A stretch of 64,000 nucleotides of DNA from Mobula birostris (lineage: Eukaryota), in the NCBI RefSeq assembly GCF_030028105.1, contig NC_092380.1, forward strand, positions 102,787,899 through 102,851,898, given 5' to 3'. Shown one piece after another: positions 186-63,445 of the stretch (the first letter of the stretch is position 1; the number at the start of each line of letters is the position of its first letter). A model generated the notes under the pieces. That model did not search any database and was not told where the DNA came from. It saw only the letters and a program-made list of their open reading frames with translations. A program made the translations under genes and the position numbers.

Positions 186-249
186 GTCTAAAAGATGAAT
201 AAGGATGGGTAATTAGTAGTCCTGGTAATGAGTAGAAAATTGATTTTCC

Positions 250-1135
250 AAGTTCAAATTAAATTTATTATCAAAGTACATGTCACCATTTACAACCCTG
301 AGATTAATTTTCTTGTGGGCATGCTCAATAAATCCATAAAAGAATAATAACCATAATAGAATAAGTGAAAGACTGAACAAGCGGGGCATTCAACCAGTGT
401 GTAAAAACAGCAAACTGTTTAAATACCAAAAGAAAGAAATAATAATAAGTAAATAAGCAGTAACTAACGAGAACATGAGATGAGGAGTCCTTGAAAGTAA
501 GTCCATCGGTTGTGGGAGCATTTCAATGATGTGGTAAATGACGCTGAGTGAAGTTATTCCCATAGTATATGTCACTATGTGCTAACTTGAGATTCACTTT
601 TTTGCAGGCATTTACAAAAAAAAAGAAATACAATAGAATTTATGAAAAACTATACAAAAGACTGACAAACAACCAATGTACAAAAGAAGACAAATTATGT
701 AAATTTTTTAAATAAATATATAAAATACTGAGAACGTGAGTTGTAGAGTCTTTGAAAGTGAGTCCATAGGCTGTGGAGTCAGTTCATTGTTGAGGTATGT
801 GAAGTTATCCGTGCTGATTCGGAAGCCTGATGTTTGAGGAGTAATAGCTGTTCCTGAACCGGGTGGTGTGGGACCCCAAGCTCCTGTATCTCCTTCTTGA
901 TGGCAGCAGCAAGAAGAGAGCTTGGCCTAGGTGATGAGGGTGCCTGATGATGGATGCTGCTTCCTTGTGGCAGCGCTCCTTGTAAATTTAGTCAATGGTG
1001 GGGAAGGCTTAGCCTGTGATGGACTGGGCTGTATCCACCATTTTCTGTAGCCTTTTCCATTCCGGTGCTTTGGTGTTTCCATACCAGGCTGTGATGCAAT
1101 CAGTCCACTTTGCATCTATAGAGGTTTGTCAAAGT
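250..1135 (-). mobile_element. Rex1/Babar LINE 3' fragments
   Basis: Same RT C-terminus and 3' UTR as the copies at 18.4-19.0 kb and 10.6-11.2 kb. Confidence 0.7.
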
Positions 1136-1208
1136 TTTTTGTCATGGGGTATACCATGAGTATGAACAGGTTGGTCCTAACTTGGGCAATTAATCAGAAC
1201 ATTTCCAG

Positions 1209-1291
1209 CTGCCATGTTTTTGGAACACTAGAAAAAGTGTCAAATGTGGCTGAATTATGGGTGGGATCTTGCTTGGTTTGAAGAGGATCAG
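1209..1291 (+). pseudogene. Degenerate duplicate of ANO1 exon 1914-1996 (pseudo-exon)
   Basis: 73/83 nt identical with no indels. atttccag acceptor and gttag donor retained. TGG>TAG stop at 1229-1231. Confidence 0.92.
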
Positions 1292-1570
1292 GTTAGCATG
1301 GAAGTGTAGTGGTTAGCAGAACGCTTTACAGTACCAGCAATATGGGTTCAACTCCTGCCACTGCCTGTAAGGAGTTTGTATGTTCTCCACGTGAATGCAT
1401 GGGCATCCTCCAGATACTCCAGTTTCCTCTTACAAGACAAAGATGTACTGGTTGGTAGGTTAATTGGACATGGTAAATTGTCCTGTGGTTATGCTAGAAT
1501 TAAATCAGGGGATTGCTGGGCGGCACAGATCGAAGGCCAGAAGGGTCTATCCCACACTATATCTTATTAA
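1292..1570 (+). mobile_element. tRNA-derived V-SINE (HE1-like)
   Basis: tRNA head (gtagtggttagc...gggttcaactcc) plus V-domain (ggagtttgtatgttctcc...ggttaattgg). Further copies at about 2741-3025, 16020-16260, 20490-20775, 28465-28805, 29795-30040, 53500-53755 and 60420-60630. Confidence 0.8.
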
Positions 1571-1913
1571 ATGAGTGTTAATGGTGACCGGAGACTGGAG
1601 TTTATGACAGAGACCATCAATGCTATCCATGGTCTCACTGAGATAACAGCTGCAGAATGAAAATCCTTCCTTGTATCTCTATCTACATCTAAGCATCCGT
1701 CACATATCATGATTTTGGCATGGCAAACGATCTACAGTGTCTACAAGTGAAGGGCACTTTTATCCCCCAAAGTCAGTACACTGTTGTGTAGGAATGTGGA
1801 GAAATTATTTTAAGAAATTCTTTATATTTAAAAAGACTCATTACTTTGTAGTCATTTTAATTTATTGCTGGAAAAATAATGATCATTTTGATAAAAGCCA
1901 ATTTTATTTCCAG

Positions 1914-1996
1914 CTGCCATGTTCTTGGAACACTGGAAAAGGTGCCAAATGAGGCTGAATTATAGGTGGGATCTTACTGGATTTGAAGAGGATGAG
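1914..1996 (+). CDS. ANO1: Anoctamin-1 coding exon (83 nt): (A)[27 protein letters not shown]
   Basis: ttccag|CT...GAT GAG|gttag. Matches recalled mammalian ANO1 [28 protein letters not shown]. Ends in phase 0. Confidence 0.95.
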
Positions 1997-2113
1997 GTTA
2001 GATTTTTAAGATTCATTCCTTAAAAATCCCTAAATTTTCATTGAACAATATTTTGCCATTAATTTTTGCCATTAATAACACTTCTTTCTTCTTCTGTTGC
2101 CGTCGGCCTGAAG

Positions 2114-2125
2114 GAACGATTAAAG
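2114..2125 (+). CDS. ANO1: ANO1 12-nt microexon (segment c equivalent), ERLK
   Basis: Pyrimidine tract then ctgaag|GAA CGA TTA AAG|gtttgg. Phase 0-0, between the EEDE and DHPR exons, where mammalian EAVK lies. Confidence 0.85.
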
Positions 2126-2484
2126 GTTTGGATTTTTTTTTAATTAACTCCTGTACATCTTTCTGAAGCTTGCCTAATTATGATGTTTCTGTTGCTGTAT
2201 TGGTGCTGGGTGGGGGGAGGGGCTGGGATTAATCCAATACAATTTTATGTTACGCTTCGGAGCTTTTACCTTTTCTTTCTACATGTTGTATTGTCAAACT
2301 AAATCACACGTGCCATAATAGAGGATTCCTCATCGAACTACTCAGTACTTGTACTTGCCTGCCATAAATGCCTCTTTCTATTTCATCCCAGGTGCAAAAA
2401 TGACTCTTCCAAATTTGGTGATTTTATGCTAATTAGAAGCTGGAAAGCCCAAAAGATCTTTTAGTCATTTAAGGTAGTTGTATA

Positions 2485-3325
2485 CATTCATTGGCCAATT
2501 TATTATTAGTTACTTCCTGTACCTAATAATGTGGCCACTGAGTGGATATTCCATGGTCTTCTACTGCTGTAGCCGGTCCACTTCAAGCTTTGACATGTTG
2601 TGGGTTCAGAAATGCTCTTCTGCACACCGGTGTTGTAACATGCAGTTACTTGAGTTGCAGTCGCCTTCCTGTCAGCTTGAACCAGTCTGGCCGTTCTCCT
2701 GTGGCCTCTGTCATTAACAAGGTGTTGTCACCCACAGAACTTGGGCGCCACGGTAGTGTGGCAGTTAACACGAGGCTATTGCAGCATCGGGCATTGCATT
2801 TCCACATTCAATCCCACCGTCCTCTGTAAAGAGTCTCTGTACGTCCTCCCATGGAATGTATGGGTTTTCTCCGGGTGCTCCTGTTTACTCTTGCAATCTA
2901 CAGAGGTATGGCTAGGTTAACTCGTCATTGTAAATTGTCCCATGACTAAGTTAAGTTTAAATCAAGGTTGTTGGGAGTTTCTGGGCGGAAGGGCCTATTC
3001 TACGCTGTCACTCTAAATAAATAAACTGCAACTCACTGGATTTTTTTTTTGTTTTTACACCATTCTCTGTAAACTCTAGAGGCTACTGTGCGTGAAAATC
3101 CCAGGAGATCAGTAGTTTCTAGGATTCTCAAATCACCCCATTTGGCACCATCAACATTACATTTCTTCCCCACTCTGATGTTTGGTCTGAACAACAAATG
3201 AACCTCCTGTCTGTCTGTCTGTATCTTGTTTTACAGCGGTTGGCATCCAGCTTAATGGTGCATTACCGCCACCCTCTGCTCCAGAATGTGCACTAGACAT
3301 ACATTCTAAATCCCTTCACCCAATC

Positions 3326-3363
<38 letters not shown>

Positions 3364-3623
3364 CTACACTTCACCCTCCCATCTTTGACCATCCTAGTAT
3401 CCTATTCCTGTTTATTCGTCATAGTCTATAAAAAACCCCTGTACCCCTTAAAAATGCTAAAAATACCCGGACTTGTGCTCTCTCACCCATGCCCAGCAAA
3501 ATGAACCTCCTGACCATGTCTGCATGTCTTTATGCATTTGATTGCTGCCACATGATTGGCTGATTAGATATTTGCATTAATGAGCAGGTGTACAGTTATA
3601 CCTAATAAAGTGGCCACTGATTG
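2485..3623 (-). mobile_element. Non-autonomous Tc1/mariner element with nested V-SINE and LINE tail
   Basis: TA-flanked TIRs related to CACTCAGTGGCCACTTTATTAGGTAC. Same family as 8785-9346. Confidence 0.85.
3210..3498 (-). mobile_element. 5'-truncated LINE 3' end (Nimb/I-group-like) with internal (CA)n
   Basis: Perfect 14-bp TSD aaatgaacctcctg (3196-3209, 3499-3512). (ACAG)n tail. GGTGGCGGTAATGCAC motif recalled from fish Nimb 3' UTRs. Confidence 0.7.
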
Positions 3624-4210
3624 TATTTGAGATGTTTTATAAATGAAGACTAGTAAATAAAATGTTTAGTTCAGAGTCATTTTTAGTACGGTGGTAACTC
3701 GAAAAGTTTACTTTTAACATTTTTGGTCATCTTAAACCTCCATTTCCTTTATTGCAGGCAGTTTTGCAATTTAGACCACTATCTTGATTGTGTTTTTAGT
3801 CTCTGTCCGATGGTAAATGATAGCTGCAGTGTGCTTTCCCACAAAACCACCTGACAATTGTCTGCCTCTATTCTTGGTAAAGATTGGGGAAATTCAGCAT
3901 CCAATAGATATGAGCCTGAATTTCTATCCCCACTTCAAAAGAAACAAGTATATTGGCATTCCAAAAAAATGTGAGATTTCTGGAGGTGGCATTTGTTGGC
4001 AGTCATACAAGTTAACTGTGTTAGTGTCGAGAAAATGTTCTTGTATTGGGGAAACAAAAGGTTTATTGCTCAATGGGTTAATTGGGTAAATGTTTGGGTA
4101 CTCTTACAAACATTATGTAAATACTAAGTTGATTCTTGATATTGATATATATTTGTATGTTCTCAAAAGTAATCAAACTTAAGGTTCAAGTTTATAACAT
4201 TTTGATAGTT

Positions 4211-4770
4211 CATAAGACCATAAGTTATTGGAGCAGAATTAGGCCATTTAGCCCAAGGAGTCTGCTCCACCATTCCATCATGGCTGATTTATTATTTTGC
4301 TCAATGCCATTCTCCTAACTTCAACTTGTAACCTTTGACGCCCTTACTAAGCACGAGCCTGTCAACTTCTGCTTTAAGTATACCCAATGACCTCCACAGC
4401 TGTCTGTGGCAATGAACTCCAGAGATTCACCATCCTCTGGCTAAAGAAATTCCTCCTCACCTCCTCATTCTTTCTCGTCCTTGTATTGTGAAGTTGTGCT
4501 CTTTTTTCCTTAACTCCCCCACAATTGGAAGTATCCTCTCCATGTCCATTCTATGCAGGTTATTCAATATTTGATGGGTTTCAATGAGATCTCCCTTCGT
4601 TCATCTAAACTCCAGCAAGTACAGGCCCAGAGCCATCAAACGCTCCACATACATTAACATTTTCATTCCTGGGATCATTCTTGTGGCACCGCTGTGGACT
4701 GTCTCCAATGCCAACACATCCTTTCTCAGATCATGGCCCAACACAGCACACGACTCTCCAGTACTCCTGT
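4211..4770 (-). mobile_element. CR1 LINE 3' fragment
   Basis: ORF 4601..4795 has LRKDVLALETV...TRMIPGMK, the CR1 RT C-terminus. Confidence 0.85.
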
Positions 4771-4932
4771 AATGATGTTTTCTGCATAAGGGCAAGAGAA
4801 AATATGGATTTTTTCTAGCAAAGTTTAACTGAGTAAAAAGCAGTTGAGCTTTGAATAACTTATATTAAATGTAGCTTTTTAATTATGGCTAATGTTTCTG
4901 CTGACTGTTTTCTTCCCTTTTGAAATAAACAG

Positions 4933-5007
4933 GATCATCCACGTCCTGAGTATGAGGCTAGAGTTCTGAGTAAAGTTTTGAAAAAAGAGCTTCAAAAGAA
5001 AGAAGAG
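4933..5007 (+). CDS. ANO1: ANO1 exon (75 nt): DHPRPEYEARVLSKVLKKELQKKEE
   Basis: aacag|GAT...GAG|gtatag. Matches ANO1 DHPRAEYEARVLEKSLKKE. Confidence 0.95.
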
Positions 5008-5712
5008 GTATAGATAAGCCTTCAATGTAAATAACACTTACTTTTAGCTAAAGACCCAAATTATTCTTTGTTGTTTTTTGAGCAACACACACAAAATGCT
5101 GGAGGAGCTTGGCAAGTCGGGCAGTTTTATTCCCTTCCATAGCTGCTGCCTGATTTATTGAGTTCCTCCAGCACTTTGTGTGTGTGTTCAAGATTTCCAT
5201 TTCCTGCAGAATCTCTTGTGTTTATGTTCTGCATTTTTTTTAAATTTTTGTACTCGTTCATTTTTTGTAATTTTCCCCAAAATTCAGTCTTACTGGATGT
5301 ATATATTGATGGGCTTTATTAAGTTAATGTTTGGGCACTAGTCCATGTAATTGTTGGTTTTACTCCTGCATCTGGGATTATGTGTTAAATAGAGTATCTT
5401 TGATGGTAACACAAGATTAAGGAATTACCGAGATTGACCTTGCTAATGACTGCTAAAAGGGGAACATCTATACTCTTGTTAATCCAAGGTGCTTTTTGAT
5501 GATTAAAACACAATAGAAATGAATGGAAGAGATATCATGTAATTAACTCCATCAAGTTTGAGGCTGTTCCTGGGTTTCAAGGTGATTTTCAGCATTTCCC
5601 TAATGCAATGAAATAGACAATAACGTTCACTTTATATTGAATCCCTAATGTTAGTTTATATTGATATGTTTAACACTCTGCCTGTATGGGCCTTTTCTCT
5701 ACCTGACCTCAG

Positions 5713-5790
5713 AAGGCAGCAGAAGGCGTGGAGGAACAGCCAAACAAATGGAAAAACAGAGTTTTGAATGCCATGGCTGGGGTGAAATTG
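5713..5790 (+). CDS. ANO1: ANO1 segment-d exon (78 nt): KAAEGVEEQPNKWKNRVLNAMAGVKL
   Basis: ctcag|AAG...TTG|gtacc. 26 aa, same length as mammalian KRRHIPEESTNKWKQRVKTAMAGVKL. Overlaps ORF 5728..5967. Confidence 0.92.
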
Positions 5791-7994
5791 GTACCAGTTG
5801 AAAATAAAACTTTCTTGTTTATTTTTCAAAGTTTGTTTAGAAGGACATGGAGCCATTTGTTTTTTTTAATTATAGTTGCCATGTGCACACCTAAATGTGC
5901 AATTTATTGTCATAAAGTACACTCGTTATTTCAATTGTGCATTATGTCAATAAACTTGCTCATTTAATTTTCTGACAATTGATTAACCAAGTGGAAAAGA
6001 AAATGCTTTCTTCAATTTAGAGCTGATGAATATTATGCTGGATTGTCTGATTGATTATCAATGTTCTCAAAGTATTGAATAAACACAACTGAGAGATGGT
6101 ATCTCACCATAATGTCTTCTGCTTTTTTTTTCCAAAAATTCTTTATCATTACATTAGCTGGAAAAGTTGTTCCCCAGATAAATCTATCCAAATTTTTAAT
6201 GAAATTACTTGGAAGTGGCACATGCAATTTAAAGTGGCAGTCTTTCTCAACAAGCTAATAGATATTGTATTGCCAAACTTAGTCACTTTATTAAAAGCAT
6301 CCGATAGTTGGTAAAGCGATGCATTAGAATGGCTGTGCATGTCATATTTGTTAAAGGCACTCTAATTCAGTTTTGTTTTCAGCCACCTTAGTATGGTTAT
6401 CACTGTGCATGTGATTAGTGACTTTTGTGCACCATGTGACTTATCCTGTGATGCTTAACAAGTAGCAAATAGTTCTAGCAGCTGTAGTCAATCAGGGCAT
6501 TAATGTGCTAAGCTTCTAGTTTTGAAGTTTGTCCTTATGAAATATTTCCCATTGATAATGACCAACTGATTTAATTCATGTTCACTTTGTAAGGACTCCT
6601 AAGCAAGATCTGGAATTATATAATTAATAAGTTTAGCTTACAAAGAATGTTTTTAAAGTAATTGGGTGTTTGAGGGCCCAACCACTCAGCAGCCAAGCTA
6701 CTTTGCAAAGAGGCTACTTGCATTCATTTAGTTCAAAATGTGATTGACTTTTATTCGTCAGCCTCACGTGTGATGGGCAGTCTTAATTTAGTCTTGGTTG
6801 TGACCTCTGTGCTGACAATTATTGATTTTAAAAAAAGATTTAAAATAAAAATTGTTAAATTAGGTTATTACTGTTGCAAGTACCAAAGCACAGTGTAAAA
6901 CATTAGATTTGCACATCATGCAAATAGATCATTTCAACATATCAGTACATTGAGGTAGTACAGGAGAAAGCAGAATATTCAGTTATCAGTGCAGCCAGAC
7001 CATATCACGATGAGGTAGATTGTGAGGATCCATCTTACTGTAAATAAAAACACCTTCAGAACGGACACAAGGAAGACATCAGGAAACCTTTTTTTCCATA
7101 TGTGGTAGATAAAACTAGAGGATGTGGATTTAGGGTGAGAGATTTTGAGGAAGCCTGAGGGAGTCCTTTTTTTTTAAACACGAGTGGTGAGCACATAGTA
7201 TGCGCTGCTGGGGAGTGATTGAAACGGAATCACTGACATTATTTAGCATGAGGACTTGAACCTTGCGTCACTGAAGGCGACAGAGCCGGTGTTTCAAAAT
7301 GACAGATAAATACAAATGGGTGCCCACCTTATCATTGTGAACACAGTGGGCCCCGTGGTCCATGCTGTTTGACTCTCCACACCCTGATTCCTGATTGGCA
7401 AGCTAAATGTTACTAAAAGTAATCTTTTTTTTAGGAGGGCTCAGGGTATCAGATAACGCTTGAATAATAAGACATAAAAGGGCCAGTGATCTCAAACCCA
7501 TGTTCAGGATGAGCATGGAATGAGCATGTAAGGAGCAACGAATTCTGACTGGGCTTACGCCGTGTAGAAAAATGAAAGGTCATTTCACTAAAACGTAGAC
7601 CATTCTCTCCGTTGTCATGAAGGCATTGACGCAGGGTTGTACTTCCCTTCACGTGGATCTTTACACCAATGGACCAGGGTCCCATTAAGGTTTCCGCCAT
7701 TCAGGATGGTAACAGCAGAAACATCCTCTTCCACAGGAGGCTGAATCATTAGAAACCTCTACCGTAGTTGTTGTGAGAGCTCGGTTGCTGACTGTATTCA
7801 ATATACAGATTGAGATGTTTTTGGGTTTCAAAGGGGTCAAGAGGTGTGTTAGTGAAGCAAAATGGCACCAGGTAAGAGGTCAACCCTGATTCTTATGGAA
7901 TGGAGGAATAAATGGCCCCTTAATCATGTTTTCTTTGTACTAATATTCTCTTCTTTCATCTCCAACCTTAAAACTGGCCATCCTTTTCACAGCT

Positions 7995-11696: not shown

Positions 11697-11771
11697 ACTG
11701 AAAAGGAGAAACTGACTTGGAGGGACCGTGGCCCAGCTTACCTGACAAATATGGTCAGCATCCTTTTCATG
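11697..11771 (+). CDS. ANO1: ANO1 exon (75 nt): TEKEKLTWRDRGPAYLTNMVSILFM
   Basis: catag|ACT...ATG|gtaag. Matches TDKVKLTWRDRFPAYLTNLVSIIFM. Confidence 0.95.
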
Positions 11772-21175: not shown

Positions 21176-21377
21176 ATCGGCCTGACATTTGCAATCGTCT
21201 TTGGAGTGATCCTGTATCGAATCTCCACGGCAGCGGCTATGGCCGTGAGCCCTGATCAATATGCCAAAGCTAATGTCCGAGTCATTGTCACGGCTACTGC
21301 AGTCATCATAAATCTGGTGGTCATTCTTATTTTGGATGAAGTCTATGGTGCTGTTGCTCGATGGCTGACAAAAATTG
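21176..21377 (+). CDS. ANO1: ANO1 exon (202 nt), TM3-TM4: [67 protein letters not shown]
   Basis: tctag|ATC...ATT G|gtaag. Contained in ORF 21206..21466. Phase 0-1. Confidence 0.97.
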
Positions 21378-26662: not shown

Positions 26663-26774
26663 AGGTCCCAAAAACAGACAAAAGTTTTGAGGAAAGGTTA
26701 ATTTTTAAGGCTTTTCTGTTAAAGTTTGTGAATGCCTACACGCCAATCTTTTACGTTGCGTTCTTCAAAGGCAG
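26663..26774 (+). CDS. ANO1: ANO1 exon (112 nt), TM5: (E)[36 protein letters not shown](R)
   Basis: cacag|AG...GGC AG|gtgag. Phase 1-2. Confidence 0.97.
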
Positions 26775-27769: not shown

Positions 27770-27827
27770 GTTCACAGGTCGGCCTGGAAAATATACATAT
27801 ATCTTTCACAGCATGCGCATGGAAGAG
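27770..27827 (+). CDS. ANO1: ANO1 exon (58 nt): (R)FTGRPGKYTYIFHSMRMEE
   Basis: tccag|G TTC...GAG|gtagt. Phase 2-0. Confidence 0.95.
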
Positions 27828-27929
27828 GTAGTGTAATTTCTTGGGCCTTCTCATATTTAAATGAAAATTTAGCTCGAGAGTTTGCCATCTGGTTTAAGAC
27901 CAATAACTCTTATGTTTTATTTTGATCAG

Positions 27930-28030
27930 TGTGCTCCAGGAGGCTGCCTGATGGAGCTGTGCATTCAACTGAGCATCATCATGCTGGGAAAGCAATTAAT
28001 ACAGAACAACCTGTTTGAAATAGGCATTCC
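27930..28030 (+). CDS. ANO1: ANO1 exon (101 nt), TM6: [33 protein letters not shown](P)
   Basis: atcag|TGT...ATT CC|gtaag. Anoctamin signature motif including the Ca2+-ligand NNLFE. Confidence 0.98.
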
Positions 28031-38177: not shown

Positions 38178-38323
38178 AAAACTGAAGAAGCTGATTCGAT
38201 ACATAAAGGCAAAAAGAGAGGCCAAATTGGAGGCAGAAAGCAACTGCAAGGTCCCTCGCCAGTATGAATCAGACTATAACCTCGAGCCATTTTCTGGACT
38301 GACTCCAGAGTACATGGAAATGA
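38178..38323 (+). CDS. ANO1: ANO1 exon (146 nt): KLKKLIRYIKAKREAKLEAESNCKVPRQYESDYNLEPFSGLTPEYMEM
   Basis: ttcag|A AAA...ATG A|gtaag. In ORF 38164..38355. Carries the EYMEM Ca2+-binding glutamates. Confidence 0.97.
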
Positions 38324-52868: not shown

Positions 52869-53021
52869 TTATCCAGTTTGGATTTGTTACGCTGTTTGTG
52901 GCATCCTTCCCACTTGCCCCATTGTTTGCACTGCTGAACAATGTCATTGAAATCCGGCTGGACGCTAAAAAGTTTATCTCTGAACTCCGAAGACCCAACG
53001 CGGCAAGATCAAAGGACATCG
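52869..53021 (+). CDS. ANO1: ANO1 exon (153 nt), TM7-TM8: (I)[50 protein letters not shown]
   Basis: cgcag|TT ATC...ATC G|gttag. Carries the EIRLD Ca2+ ligands. Phase 1-1. Confidence 0.98.
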
Positions 53022-56000
53022 GTTAGTAAATCTTAACTATCGCTAACTATCTGCAAGGCTGAGTTTATGATTTGACTTGTGAACAATATCTATGTGCATT
53101 TATCAGTAACTGCTGAAGAAAGACCTTCCTCACAACATATTGTTAATGCTGAAAGGTGATGCAACCAGGTTCAACGACAAATGGTATTGTTACCGCCCCC
53201 CCCCCCCACTCCGCCCTCTGACTCTTCTTCTTCTCACTTGCCAATTACTTCCCCCTGGAGTCCCCTCCTCCTTCCCTTTCTCCTATTGTCCACTCTCCTC
53301 TCCTATCAGATTTGTTCTCCTCCTGCACCTGGTTTCACCTATCACCTTCCAGCTAGCCTCCTTCCCCTGCCCCCACCTTTTTATTCAGGCATCTTCCCAT
53401 ATCCTTTCCTGTCCTGAAGGAGGGTCTCAGCCCAAAATGTCGGCTCCCTGACCGGCTGAATTCCTCCGACATTTTGTAGGTGTTGCAGTGGTCATTTTTT
53501 TTTTTATTTACTTAGAGATACGGCACTGTAACAGGCTCTTCTGGGCTAATAAGCCCACACCACCCGATTAAACCCACGTGACCAATTAACCTGCTAGCTT
53601 GTACATCTTTGGAATGTGGGAGGAAACCAGAGCACCCGGAGGAAACCCATGTTGTCACAGGGAGGATGTATAAGCTCCTCATAGATAGCGTTGGAATTGA
53701 GCAGAGGTTGCTGGCGCTGTAGAGGTGTCATGCTAGCCACTACACTAGCGTGTCATCCTGTATTGTGTGATTACTTAATGCAAGATCTTGCAAAGTTCTG
53801 GAATAAACACAAGAGGAGTGGAACTACGTAAAGGTCTGGTGTGAAGGAACAATTGGTCATTTCATTCTGAGATCCACGTAGAAGGCCAAGTTCACAAATG
53901 AACGAGCCACTGCCATATATTCTCCAACTAAAGTATTACCTCCACAAAAATCCTGATTCCATTAGCAACCCTAGAAATATGCCTAGTAATTTCACCCATT
54001 TTAAAATTGTTAATTGATTGTGATGCCACTGGTAAGCCTTTTGTATATTGTCCAGTTTTGAATGGGCCCCTGAGTGAGGGGTAGTTAAGACCATAAGACA
54101 TAGAAGCAGAATTAGGCCACATGGACTACTGATTCCATCATCTCATTTATTAACCCTTTCAACCCTTTCTCCTGCCTTCTCCCTATAACATTTGATGCCC
54201 TTACTAATCAAGAACCTATCAATGTCCACTTTAAATATACCCAATGCCTTGGCCTCCACAGCTGTCTGTGGCAATGAATCCAACAGATTCACTACCATCT
54301 CGCTAAAGAAATTCTTCCTCATCTCTGTATCTGTTTTAAAGGGATATCCTTCTATTCTGAGTCTGTGCCCTCAGGTCCTGCACTCTCCCACTATTGGAAC
54401 ATCTTCTCCATATCCACTCTATATCAGCATTTCAATATCTGAATAGGTTTCAATTCCAGTGAGTACAGGCCCAGAGATAATAAGTGCTGCTCGTACATTA
54501 CCCCTTTCATTCCCAGGATCATTCCTGTGAGCCACCTCAGGATCCTTTCCAATGCCACATACCCTTCCTTAGATAAGCAGCCCCAAACTACTCATAATAC
54601 TTAAGAGACCATCAGTTTGAATATCTAGAGTAGCATATGAGCTAGGCTGGGTAAAGGTGGCAGATTTCCATCTCTTAAGGGGATTGGTTGACTGGATGGA
54701 TTTTTACAATAGTTCAGTAGCTTTTGTATTCACTATTACTAATACTAGCATCAATGCATTGGACTGAAGGGCCTGCTTCCATACTGTATAAAATTACAAA
54801 TCTAAAATATTGTCGCAAAAACAAATCCTGAAGTCATGGAGCTATTGACATTGATCCTATTCTATTTTTCTTGAGATAAACAATGCCAAAACTTAAGACA
54901 ATTTGGCTTCAAACCATTTTGTTGCATCACAAGCAATGAGTTAATACATTTGAAATAAGCATAGCTGTTTGTGCTTTAGTAGTATCCGTAAGTCATGGAA
55001 ACTGGTTACTAACCTAATTCCCAGATTGTATTGTCTGGGACATAACAGTCATCAAGTTTACTGGCATTGTATATATGCACCATATGTTGGGGTGTTCCAG
55101 AAATAGATATTATTCAAAAACTGGTCAACAAAACATTAACTCTTGTATGCCACAGAGTAATTTTCTTAAATTGGCAGCAATACTGATCCAGTTTATTTAG
55201 TTTTGAGACAAGTGGAAGTGCTCACATGATTAAAGTTTGCTGCAGGCCTGAAGATGGAAATCTAATGAGAGGGCAGAAAAATGGAGCGGTTCCTAAATTA
55301 ATTTGATTGCGGTATTGTGGAATAATTGGCATCCAGCCATTTATCATGGTCAAGGGAAAAACATGGCTGCTGTTTGGCCGGAGAACGTGGGAACTGGAGT
55401 TAAACGTGCACTTCAAGTCCGCTGCAGCGCACACTTCAGTCAGGGTTTATCTGCATCTTACTGTACCTCCACCTGCTGTTTCTCCATAACAATCACTAGC
55501 TTAACAAAAAGCCATCAGTCTCCATTTTGAAAACTTCAAATGATCAAGTCTCAATTTATTTTTTTTTTAGGCTGATTTCAGATTTCCACCCGACTCTGTG
55601 CCAAGATGTATTGTATTTTGTGATGTTGTTCATTTTGAACATTTCGCACACAAGGAATTGAATTTTATTTATGGCATCAGACACTCAGCTCTCACCTGTG
55701 ACTCCAGGTCACTGTTTGCATGTGACAGCGGCCACACCCTGGTCTCCCGCTTTGACAGGGGGACTAAACCAGGTGATGGTAACTGGTGGCATTATACCCC
55801 AGTGAGATAGGGACACGCCTGTCCCAGCATGCGAAGTCGGGTCTGGCGGACTGGGCAGATGAGATTTACAGTGAGATCCAATGGCTAGGAAGGTGGTACT
55901 GCAACACTCAGTGAAGGGCATGACAAGGCACAGAGAACATCATGATCATCCACTGCAGCCAAGGAAGACCTCACTTTTTGACACTTGTTTGGACCTGGAC

Positions 56001-62292: not shown

Positions 62293-62345
62293 GTATCTGG
62301 TACAACATTCTCAGAGGCATTGGGAAGTTGGCAGTCATCATTAAT
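62293..62345 (+). CDS. ANO1: ANO1 exon (53 nt): (G)IWYNILRGIGKLAVIIN
   Basis: tttag|GT ATC...AAT|gtaag. Same as recalled mammalian ANO1. The gene continues beyond both window edges. Confidence 0.97.
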
Positions 62346-63445
62346 GTAAGTTCATATTATTTATTTAACAGAAAAATGTTCCTTTGGGAAATTTTCCATC
62401 TTACTATTTAATAAACAAATTTGGAAGTGACTAATTCTTTGTATGTGTTTGCCCTAAGTGTCTTAACACTTGTCTGCCAACTACTTTGGTTGTGTTTTAT
62501 GAAAAATTTCATAAAGGACTTGAGGGCTTTCCTGTTCAGCTGAAGACCAATCAAGTTAGAGCCAAGTCGGTGTCCAAACAGTACAGTGAAAGTGAGTTGT
62601 TGGAACTTGGGGCGAAAATTAACTTTTCAAGAAGAGAGAGTGGTCACTTGTTAAGTTAATCATAACACTTCAAGTAGAATTATCTTCTCGCAAAAGCCAG
62701 GGAATTTTGGAGGTGAGCCAACATTGATGTTCAATGAACGCCTTCTGGTGTTCTCCCGAAAGTACCAGAGACTGAAAGGAGACCTGGGAGAGATCTTTCA
62801 AATTATGGTACGTATGAATAGGTACGATAGAACAACACACACAAAATGTTGGAGGGACTCAGCAGACCAGGCAGCATCTATGGAAAAGAGTACAGTTGAT
62901 GTTTCAGGCCAAGACCCATCAATCTTTCTGCCAGGTATTTAAAGAACGTCAAATTCTAGAGGGCATATTTTTAAGGTTGGGGGTGATGGGTTGGAGCATC
63001 AAATGTGATGCGATGGGCAAGTTTTTACGTGGAGAGTGGTAGGTGATCTCAATGGTTGCAGTTTGGTGGATTTTAAGAGGCTTTTAGATAGAAGGGAATG
63101 GAGGTAAATAGATGAAAGGGGACATTTAATATGAGTTGGCATAAAGACGGGTGCGACTTTGTGGGCCAAATGACCTATTCTGTGCTATACTGTTCTTTTA
63201 ATTAACTTGCTGAGTCTTCCCAGTAAAATGGAAGGGGCTTGCAATATCACCTTCTGCAAACTCAGGATTGTAGGCACTGATAATACACAAGAGCACCTTG
63301 CAATGAAAGAGTCTAATTGAAGGACACAGTGCATGCTGCCTAAATATGACCACCTCTGGGCTTCCATCTGTAACATTCTTGACAAGTTCCTATCAGAGAT
63401 GCAAGTTCTCTTGACCCTAGCTTTTTAAATGCTTCCTCACATTTC

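Follow-up and report, generated by a model that had tools for sequence, protein, structure and literature searches.

A short intronic copy of an ANO1 exon in Mobula birostris is probably a neutrally decaying pseudoexon

Introduction

An exon copy that retains its splice sites but carries an in-frame stop may be a regulatory poison exon, the dead partner of a mutually exclusive pair or a product of neutral decay. All three readings had been put forward in an earlier note for a copy of an ANO1 exon that lies in an intron of the same gene of Mobula birostris. Which of them does this locus fit best? Here, we analyzed a stretch of 64,000 nucleotides (contig NC_092380.1, positions 102,787,899 to 102,851,898 of the forward strand), which is called the window throughout and from whose first letter all positions are counted.

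Results

The gene and its expressed exons

The assignment of the gene to ANO1 was borne out. The best PDB match of the exon at 1914-1996 (exon B) was Anoctamin-1 (E 3e-11), with Anoctamin-6 at E 0.02, and the Pfam match of the gene was Anoctamin. When nine of the ten exons were compared with Mobula birostris anoctamin-1a, 338 of 338 residues were identical. Over nine of ten exons, the window protein differed from that of M. hypostoma at three residues and from those of Hypanus and Hemitrygon at five each. The exons are:

1914..1996, + strand: exon B, the functional exon of ANO1; its mammalian orthologue is exon 12, as numbered in the primer table of PMC3170211
2114..2125, + strand: 12-nt microexon, segment c, encoding ERLK (EAVK in mammals); it accounts for 12 letters between exon B and the next exon in the contigs of runs X17 and X20
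4933..5007, + strand: next ANO1 exon, orthologue of exon 14
5713..5790, + strand: 78-nt alternative exon, segment d, orthologue of exon 15
11697-11771, 21176-21377, 26663-26774 and 27770-27832: further downstream ANO1 exons
27930-28030, 38178-38323, 52869-53025 and about 62293-62347: further downstream ANO1 exons

As transcript evidence we used assembled contigs of four presumed RNA runs, which cover two studies and two organisms; such contigs drop rare forms. A contig piece over 1913-1997, which spans exon B from end to end, was present with no differences in all four runs. The exon B contig of run X17 recurred on the exon of segment d and that of run X20 on exon 14, with offsets that left exactly 12 letters for the microexon. 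Because the same contig recurs on a downstream exon in X17 and X20, these contigs represent spliced transcripts, and exon B is expressed in spliced RNA.

Several other properties of the gene were observed. Exon B and the downstream microexon are 117 nt apart, and the X17 and X20 contigs contain the latter; among annotated shark and ray ANO1 proteins, some have segment c and others lack it. The segment d exon was covered by contigs of runs X17, X18 and X20, the X20 contig with exon B stopped directly past exon 14, which would suit a splice branch there, and this segment is present in some annotated elasmobranch isoforms and absent from others. Codon 10 of exon B (1943-1945) encodes the Cys of WKRCQ in 39 of 39 cartilaginous fish proteins and Lys or Arg in the bony vertebrates compared; copy A, described below, retains Cys. 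One ANO1 intron (27833-27929) measures 97 nt, and the gene's other introns in the window reach many kilobases.

The duplicated unit and its borders

Upstream of exon B lies a second version of this exon, for which the following features were defined:

1201..1296, + strand: duplicated unit (8 nt of acceptor, 83-nt exon copy, 5 nt of donor), 89.6% identical to 1906-2001
1209..1291, + strand: copy A, the putative pseudoexon, with a stop in each of the three frames; its 83 nt are not a multiple of 3
1229..1231, + strand: TAG in copy A in place of a Trp codon that is invariant (176 of 176 motif-bearing proteins have W)
1292..1571 (ends approximate), + strand: SINE-like repeat, near full length, in the orientation of copy A; its head overlaps the donor in register
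241..1146, no strand assigned: interspersed repeats upstream of copy A

When we searched the window with the unit by BLAST, 1201-1296 matched 1906-2001 without gaps over all 96 nt (E 1.5e-32), and the next best match reached an E of 0.13 only. Of the 12 ANO1 exons compared with the window in this way, 11 were reported (12 nt are too few for such a match), and a second copy was found for exon B only. As had been described from the letters, the two 83-nt versions lie 705 nt apart and differ by 10 substitutions and no indels, the splice ends are present (atttccag ahead of copy A, CAG followed by gttag at its end), and TGG has become TAG. Seven of the substitutions are transitions and three transversions; by effect, seven alter an amino acid or create a stop and three are silent. 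Copy A is homologous to a neighbouring exon and has both splice dinucleotides, the features by which a duplicate pseudoexon is recognized. The possibility that it is an assembly artefact, a haplotype or mis-joined copy, is hardly credible: ten substitutions including a stop, an excess of transitions, different flanks and a clean repeat junction are unlike mis-assembly.

The narrow extent of the similarity was likewise confirmed. Neither local nor anchored alignment, judged against shuffles, gave homology past the 8 nt of acceptor and 5 nt of donor (P 0.26-1.0). The repeat said to begin at the donor does so and has seven further copies in the window. The junction between copy A and this repeat falls between donor positions +4 and +6, since copy A matches exon B through +5 and the repeat is recognizable from about +5; the overlap of the two matches is short and imperfect. 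From the shape of its head and tail, we take the repeat to be of the tRNA-derived SINE type, and the earlier label of V-SINE, which would imply a central V-domain and a tRNA-derived head, is tentative; ARAGORN found no tRNA and Rfam gave no match at gathering level. On the other side, the minus strand at about 808-1146 presumably holds a decayed C-terminal LINE ORF, and the ORF pieces of the upstream repeats had no Pfam match. Between these repeats and copy A are 54 unique bases (1147-1200) that hold a CTAAC motif and match nothing else in the window.

Both borders of the unit lie at most 8 nt from the exon ends. This is improbable for random breakpoints and speaks against a pseudoexon, and the SINE junction accounts for only half of it. 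The same observation favors the reading that copy A is a mutually exclusive exon that has died, or else an older tandem duplicate whose similarity gene conversion has preserved. Repeats would then have replaced the flanks after a larger duplication, selection or conversion would have maintained the likeness and copy A would have died later. That homology ends almost exactly at the exon and that repeats lie on both sides of copy A would be as expected. However, no remnant of the flanks was detected upstream of copy A or behind the SINE-like repeat, where we searched for the downstream flank of exon B.

Origin and age of the copy

Since neither flank has a counterpart around exon B, the unit was likely 96 nt long from birth. 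The absence of the downstream flank of exon B behind the SINE disfavors a tandem duplication that was later split by this element. Two routes to so short a copy appear about equally probable. The unit may have arisen by a templated micro-duplication at the DNA level beside an existing SINE, or it may have been captured at the 5' junction of the SINE during its insertion by a template switch onto nearby ANO1 pre-mRNA or DNA. No target-site duplication was found around the copy plus SINE (longest shared word 6 nt), and such marks may be absent or eroded. By a crude measure, copy A has diverged by 0.10-0.11, and the SINE by 0.17 from the majority of its seven other copies, so that the SINE looks somewhat older than copy A.

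Codon 17 offers a hint as to when the copy was made. It reads GGG in copy A and AGG in exon B, and the encoded residue of ANO1 is Arg in Mobula, Hypanus and Hemitrygon and Lys in Pristis, Narcine, three skates, the chimaera and all eight sharks. Because GGG differs from AGG by one step and from any Lys codon by two or more, this single codon favors an origin in the stingray lineage (Myliobatiformes) after the Lys-to-Arg change, a pattern that conversion could mimic. Dating was set aside: the rate of 7e-10 per generation given for the epaulette shark (PMC10587355) would have led to more than 1e8 generations and is inapplicable here.

When we compared 179 proteins, none of the 176 that bear the exon-12 motif had a second one (three short proteins lack the motif). 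The 39 proteins of 19 cartilaginous fishes hold one exon version per species, the four species of the stingray lineage, for which the comparison matters most and is weakest, being represented by one protein each. That eight of the 19 species have two to seven proteins and still a single version counts against a mutually exclusive pair or a converted tandem duplicate.

Neutral decay of copy A

The peptide of exon B is identical in the window, in both Mobula species, in Hypanus and in Hemitrygon, and therefore all seven changes to amino acids or a stop must have occurred on copy A; the three silent ones may have occurred on either copy. We modeled the selective constraint on copy A with about 63 non-synonymous and about 20 synonymous sites, a kappa of 4 and 10 changes only. 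Here, we found that the 7:3 ratio fits an omega of 1 (p=0.57), whereas values of 0.4, 0.3 and 0.2 were rejected (p=0.047, 0.015 and 0.002). An omega of 0.5 was not rejected (p=0.10), ten substitutions leaving wide limits. Four of the seven changes fall in columns that are at least 95% conserved, which agrees with chance, given 18 such columns among 27. Among the residues changed are W7, R9 and R13, each of which is invariant in 176 of 176 proteins.

Because an omega of 0.3 or less is rejected, a long life of copy A as a coding alternative is unlikely. These data weigh against the mutually exclusive pair proposed before, and the free change of invariant residues points the same way, even though an omega of 0.5 would still be compatible with such a pair or with conversion. 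Altogether we consider that reading, in its mutually exclusive or its converted form, unlikely. The suggestion that the non-synonymous excess reflects neutral decay fits best among the earlier readings.

Next to the substitutions, the intact splice sites and the survival of little more than the exon might be taken as pointers to a function. In simulations, we let the 96-nt unit decay neutrally (0.10-0.12 substitutions per site, 20000 runs). AG and GT were both kept in 63-69% of the runs, an in-frame stop arose in 34-40%, the stop together with intact AG/GT in 23-25%, and all 13 flank bases remained unchanged in 22-30%. The observed absence of changes in the 13 flank bases did not differ significantly from the 10 changes in the 83 exon bases (Fisher p=0.35). 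As an argument for function these features are weak: intact splice sites plus a stop, which had first drawn attention to copy A, are an ordinary outcome of drift. An omega near 1 does not refute a poison exon, which can act without conservation of its peptide.

Splice signals and consequences of inclusion

Two further elements lie just ahead of copy A:

1177..1181, + strand: CTAAC branch-point-like motif, outside the duplicated unit, which puts a branch A at -29 relative to copy A's acceptor
1196..1197, + strand: AG that competes with the acceptor of copy A from 11 nt upstream; the resulting 94-nt version also has a stop

It had been proposed to score the splice sites of copy A, and here the outcome was mixed. 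The dinucleotides are intact, the donor matches the consensus at seven of nine positions (exon B, six of nine), and the branch A at -29 falls inside the branch-point window of 18-40 nt given in PMC3170211. An exact CTAAC precedes 1.3% of 3889 intronic AG sites (the looser CTRAY, 9%) and one of 12 real exons scored, and the motif at copy A was noticed post hoc. The pyrimidine tract is poor: the acceptor has 10 pyrimidines in 20 positions, the median of random intronic AGs, compared with 13-16 for 10 of the 11 real exons scored and 11 for exon B. The AG-free zone, cut short by the competing AG, is the shortest seen (9 nt; real exons, 14-101 nt; exon B, 14 nt). Since the acceptor of exon B is nearly as weak, these signals do not prove skipping. 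Applying a crude filter, we found 16 other intronic sites in the window with signals at least as good (a 17th is the upstream AG of copy A itself).

If copy A were included, the premature stop that had been predicted would follow from either acceptor (1209 or 1198). It replaces W457 of 1025 residues, which corresponds to W427 of the mouse structures and which we take to be the cytoplasmic end of TM2; TM2 was not resolved by our hydropathy scan. The donor of copy A follows 60 nt after the stop, and a further 11 exons of the window lie downstream of it, which by the distance rule makes this an NMD-type position. Because 83 is not a multiple of three, joint inclusion of copy A and exon B would shift the frame, and would have done so before there was a TAG. 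On the basis of these signals, it is plausible that copy A is leakily included and that NMD follows.

Among the contig pieces listed for the four runs, in which repeats dominate and from which rare forms have dropped out, no piece of copy A was seen, a negative that says nothing about inclusion at a low level. The exon that precedes copy A lies outside the window. DNA runs of five other organisms shared 0.12-0.48 of the words in 1000-6000, a sharing that is not specific to copy A.

A search for inverted repeats gave no pair specifically around copy A or exon B. One long inverted pair of repeat copies (108-184 and 4212-4288, 77 nt, 87% complementary) encloses copy A, exon B and the microexon. 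Rfam returned three weak miRNA-family matches below the gathering score, none of them at copy A.

Discussion

We conclude that copy A is probably a pseudoexon which arose in a short local copying event and has since accumulated changes in the absence of selection. Splicing would normally pass over it; transcripts into which it leaked would have a stop at residue 457 of about 1025, and their removal by NMD would carry no regulatory meaning.

A functional poison exon would make different use of the same stop. Copy A would be included in certain tissues or stages, translation would end at the cytoplasmic end of TM2, and ANO1 would be lowered via NMD. The intact AG/GT, the CTAAC at -29 and the donor would suit such an element, as would a stop that is found in all frames, also in the 94-nt version, and that precedes the donor by 60 nt, with many junctions downstream. 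This region of ANO1 is, moreover, a known splicing hot spot, and mouse variants bearing premature termination codons have been described there (PMC3170211). Ion channels also provide precedents (PMC3809569, PMC7790302). Inclusion of exon 18N of SCN8A, which has an in-frame stop and is paired with 18A (PMC3809569), lowers Nav1.6 via NMD. SCN8A 18N and SCN1A 20N share with copy A the setting of a stop-giving exon beside a coding exon in an ion-channel gene. However, the inclusion of 18N and 20N is regulated, and 20N lies in several hundred bases conserved among vertebrates (PMC7790302), whereas copy A, known from its sequence, sits between two lineage repeats, has changed in a manner compatible with neutrality and is likely confined to the stingray lineage. 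In the simulations, splice-site survival and the stop were both expected by chance, the pyrimidine tract is poor and faces a competing AG, and equivalent sets of signals are common in the introns of the window. A regulatory role therefore strikes us as improbable.

Mutually exclusive exons, as catalogued by Hatje et al. (2017, PMC5740500), resemble the pair of copy A and exon B in equal length, phase, similarity and a length that is not a multiple of three. Double inclusion of such exons causes a frameshift, a common setting that applies to 60% of human clusters (PMC5740500). Unlike those exons, copy A has an in-frame stop and no purifying selection on its peptide; candidates with in-frame stops were excluded from that atlas (PMC5740500). 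The intron of 622 nt between copy A and exon B is also far longer than the steric limit of less than 50 nt (PMC5740500).

The closest kind of known element is the unannotated intronic exon duplicate, which shares with copy A the position of a sense copy of a coding exon in an adjacent intron of its own gene (PMC9013439). Such duplicates are described as adjacent tandem duplications typically larger than 1 kb (Ivanov and Pervouchine 2022, PMC9013439), whereas the ANO1 unit measures 96 nt, has no copied flanks and adjoins the head of a SINE. In this last respect copy A is reminiscent of 5' chimeric retrotransposon insertions, in which LINE-1 is joined to fragments of U6, U3 or mRNA by template switching (PMC13174262): a host RNA-like piece in sense orientation is fused to the 5' end of a retroelement. 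The partner here is, however, a SINE-like element of a ray, and the piece, which is unspliced, derives from a site at a distance of 705 nt. In its boldest form this comparison would have the SINE capture 96 bases of unspliced ANO1 pre-mRNA by a template switch, the piece now serving, 29 nt past a CTAAC, as a young NMD poison exon that adjusts the dose of the chloride channel in rays of the stingray lineage. We regard this combination as very improbable. The literature matches listed did not include any account of a duplicated exon or a poison exon at this position of ANO1, or in rays.

Taken together, copy A appears to be a real but ordinary pseudoexon that is likely neutral. Intronic exon copies are common, and copy A adds a single example from a ray. 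For the interpretation of such copies, it can be seen that a stop combined with intact splice sites does not suffice for calling a poison exon, since at the divergence of copy A neutral decay yields both about a quarter of the time. If the copy and the SINE did arrive jointly, retroelements would have a direct route to duplicate exons in place, and if copy A were included under NMD block, ANO1 would contain a young poison exon.
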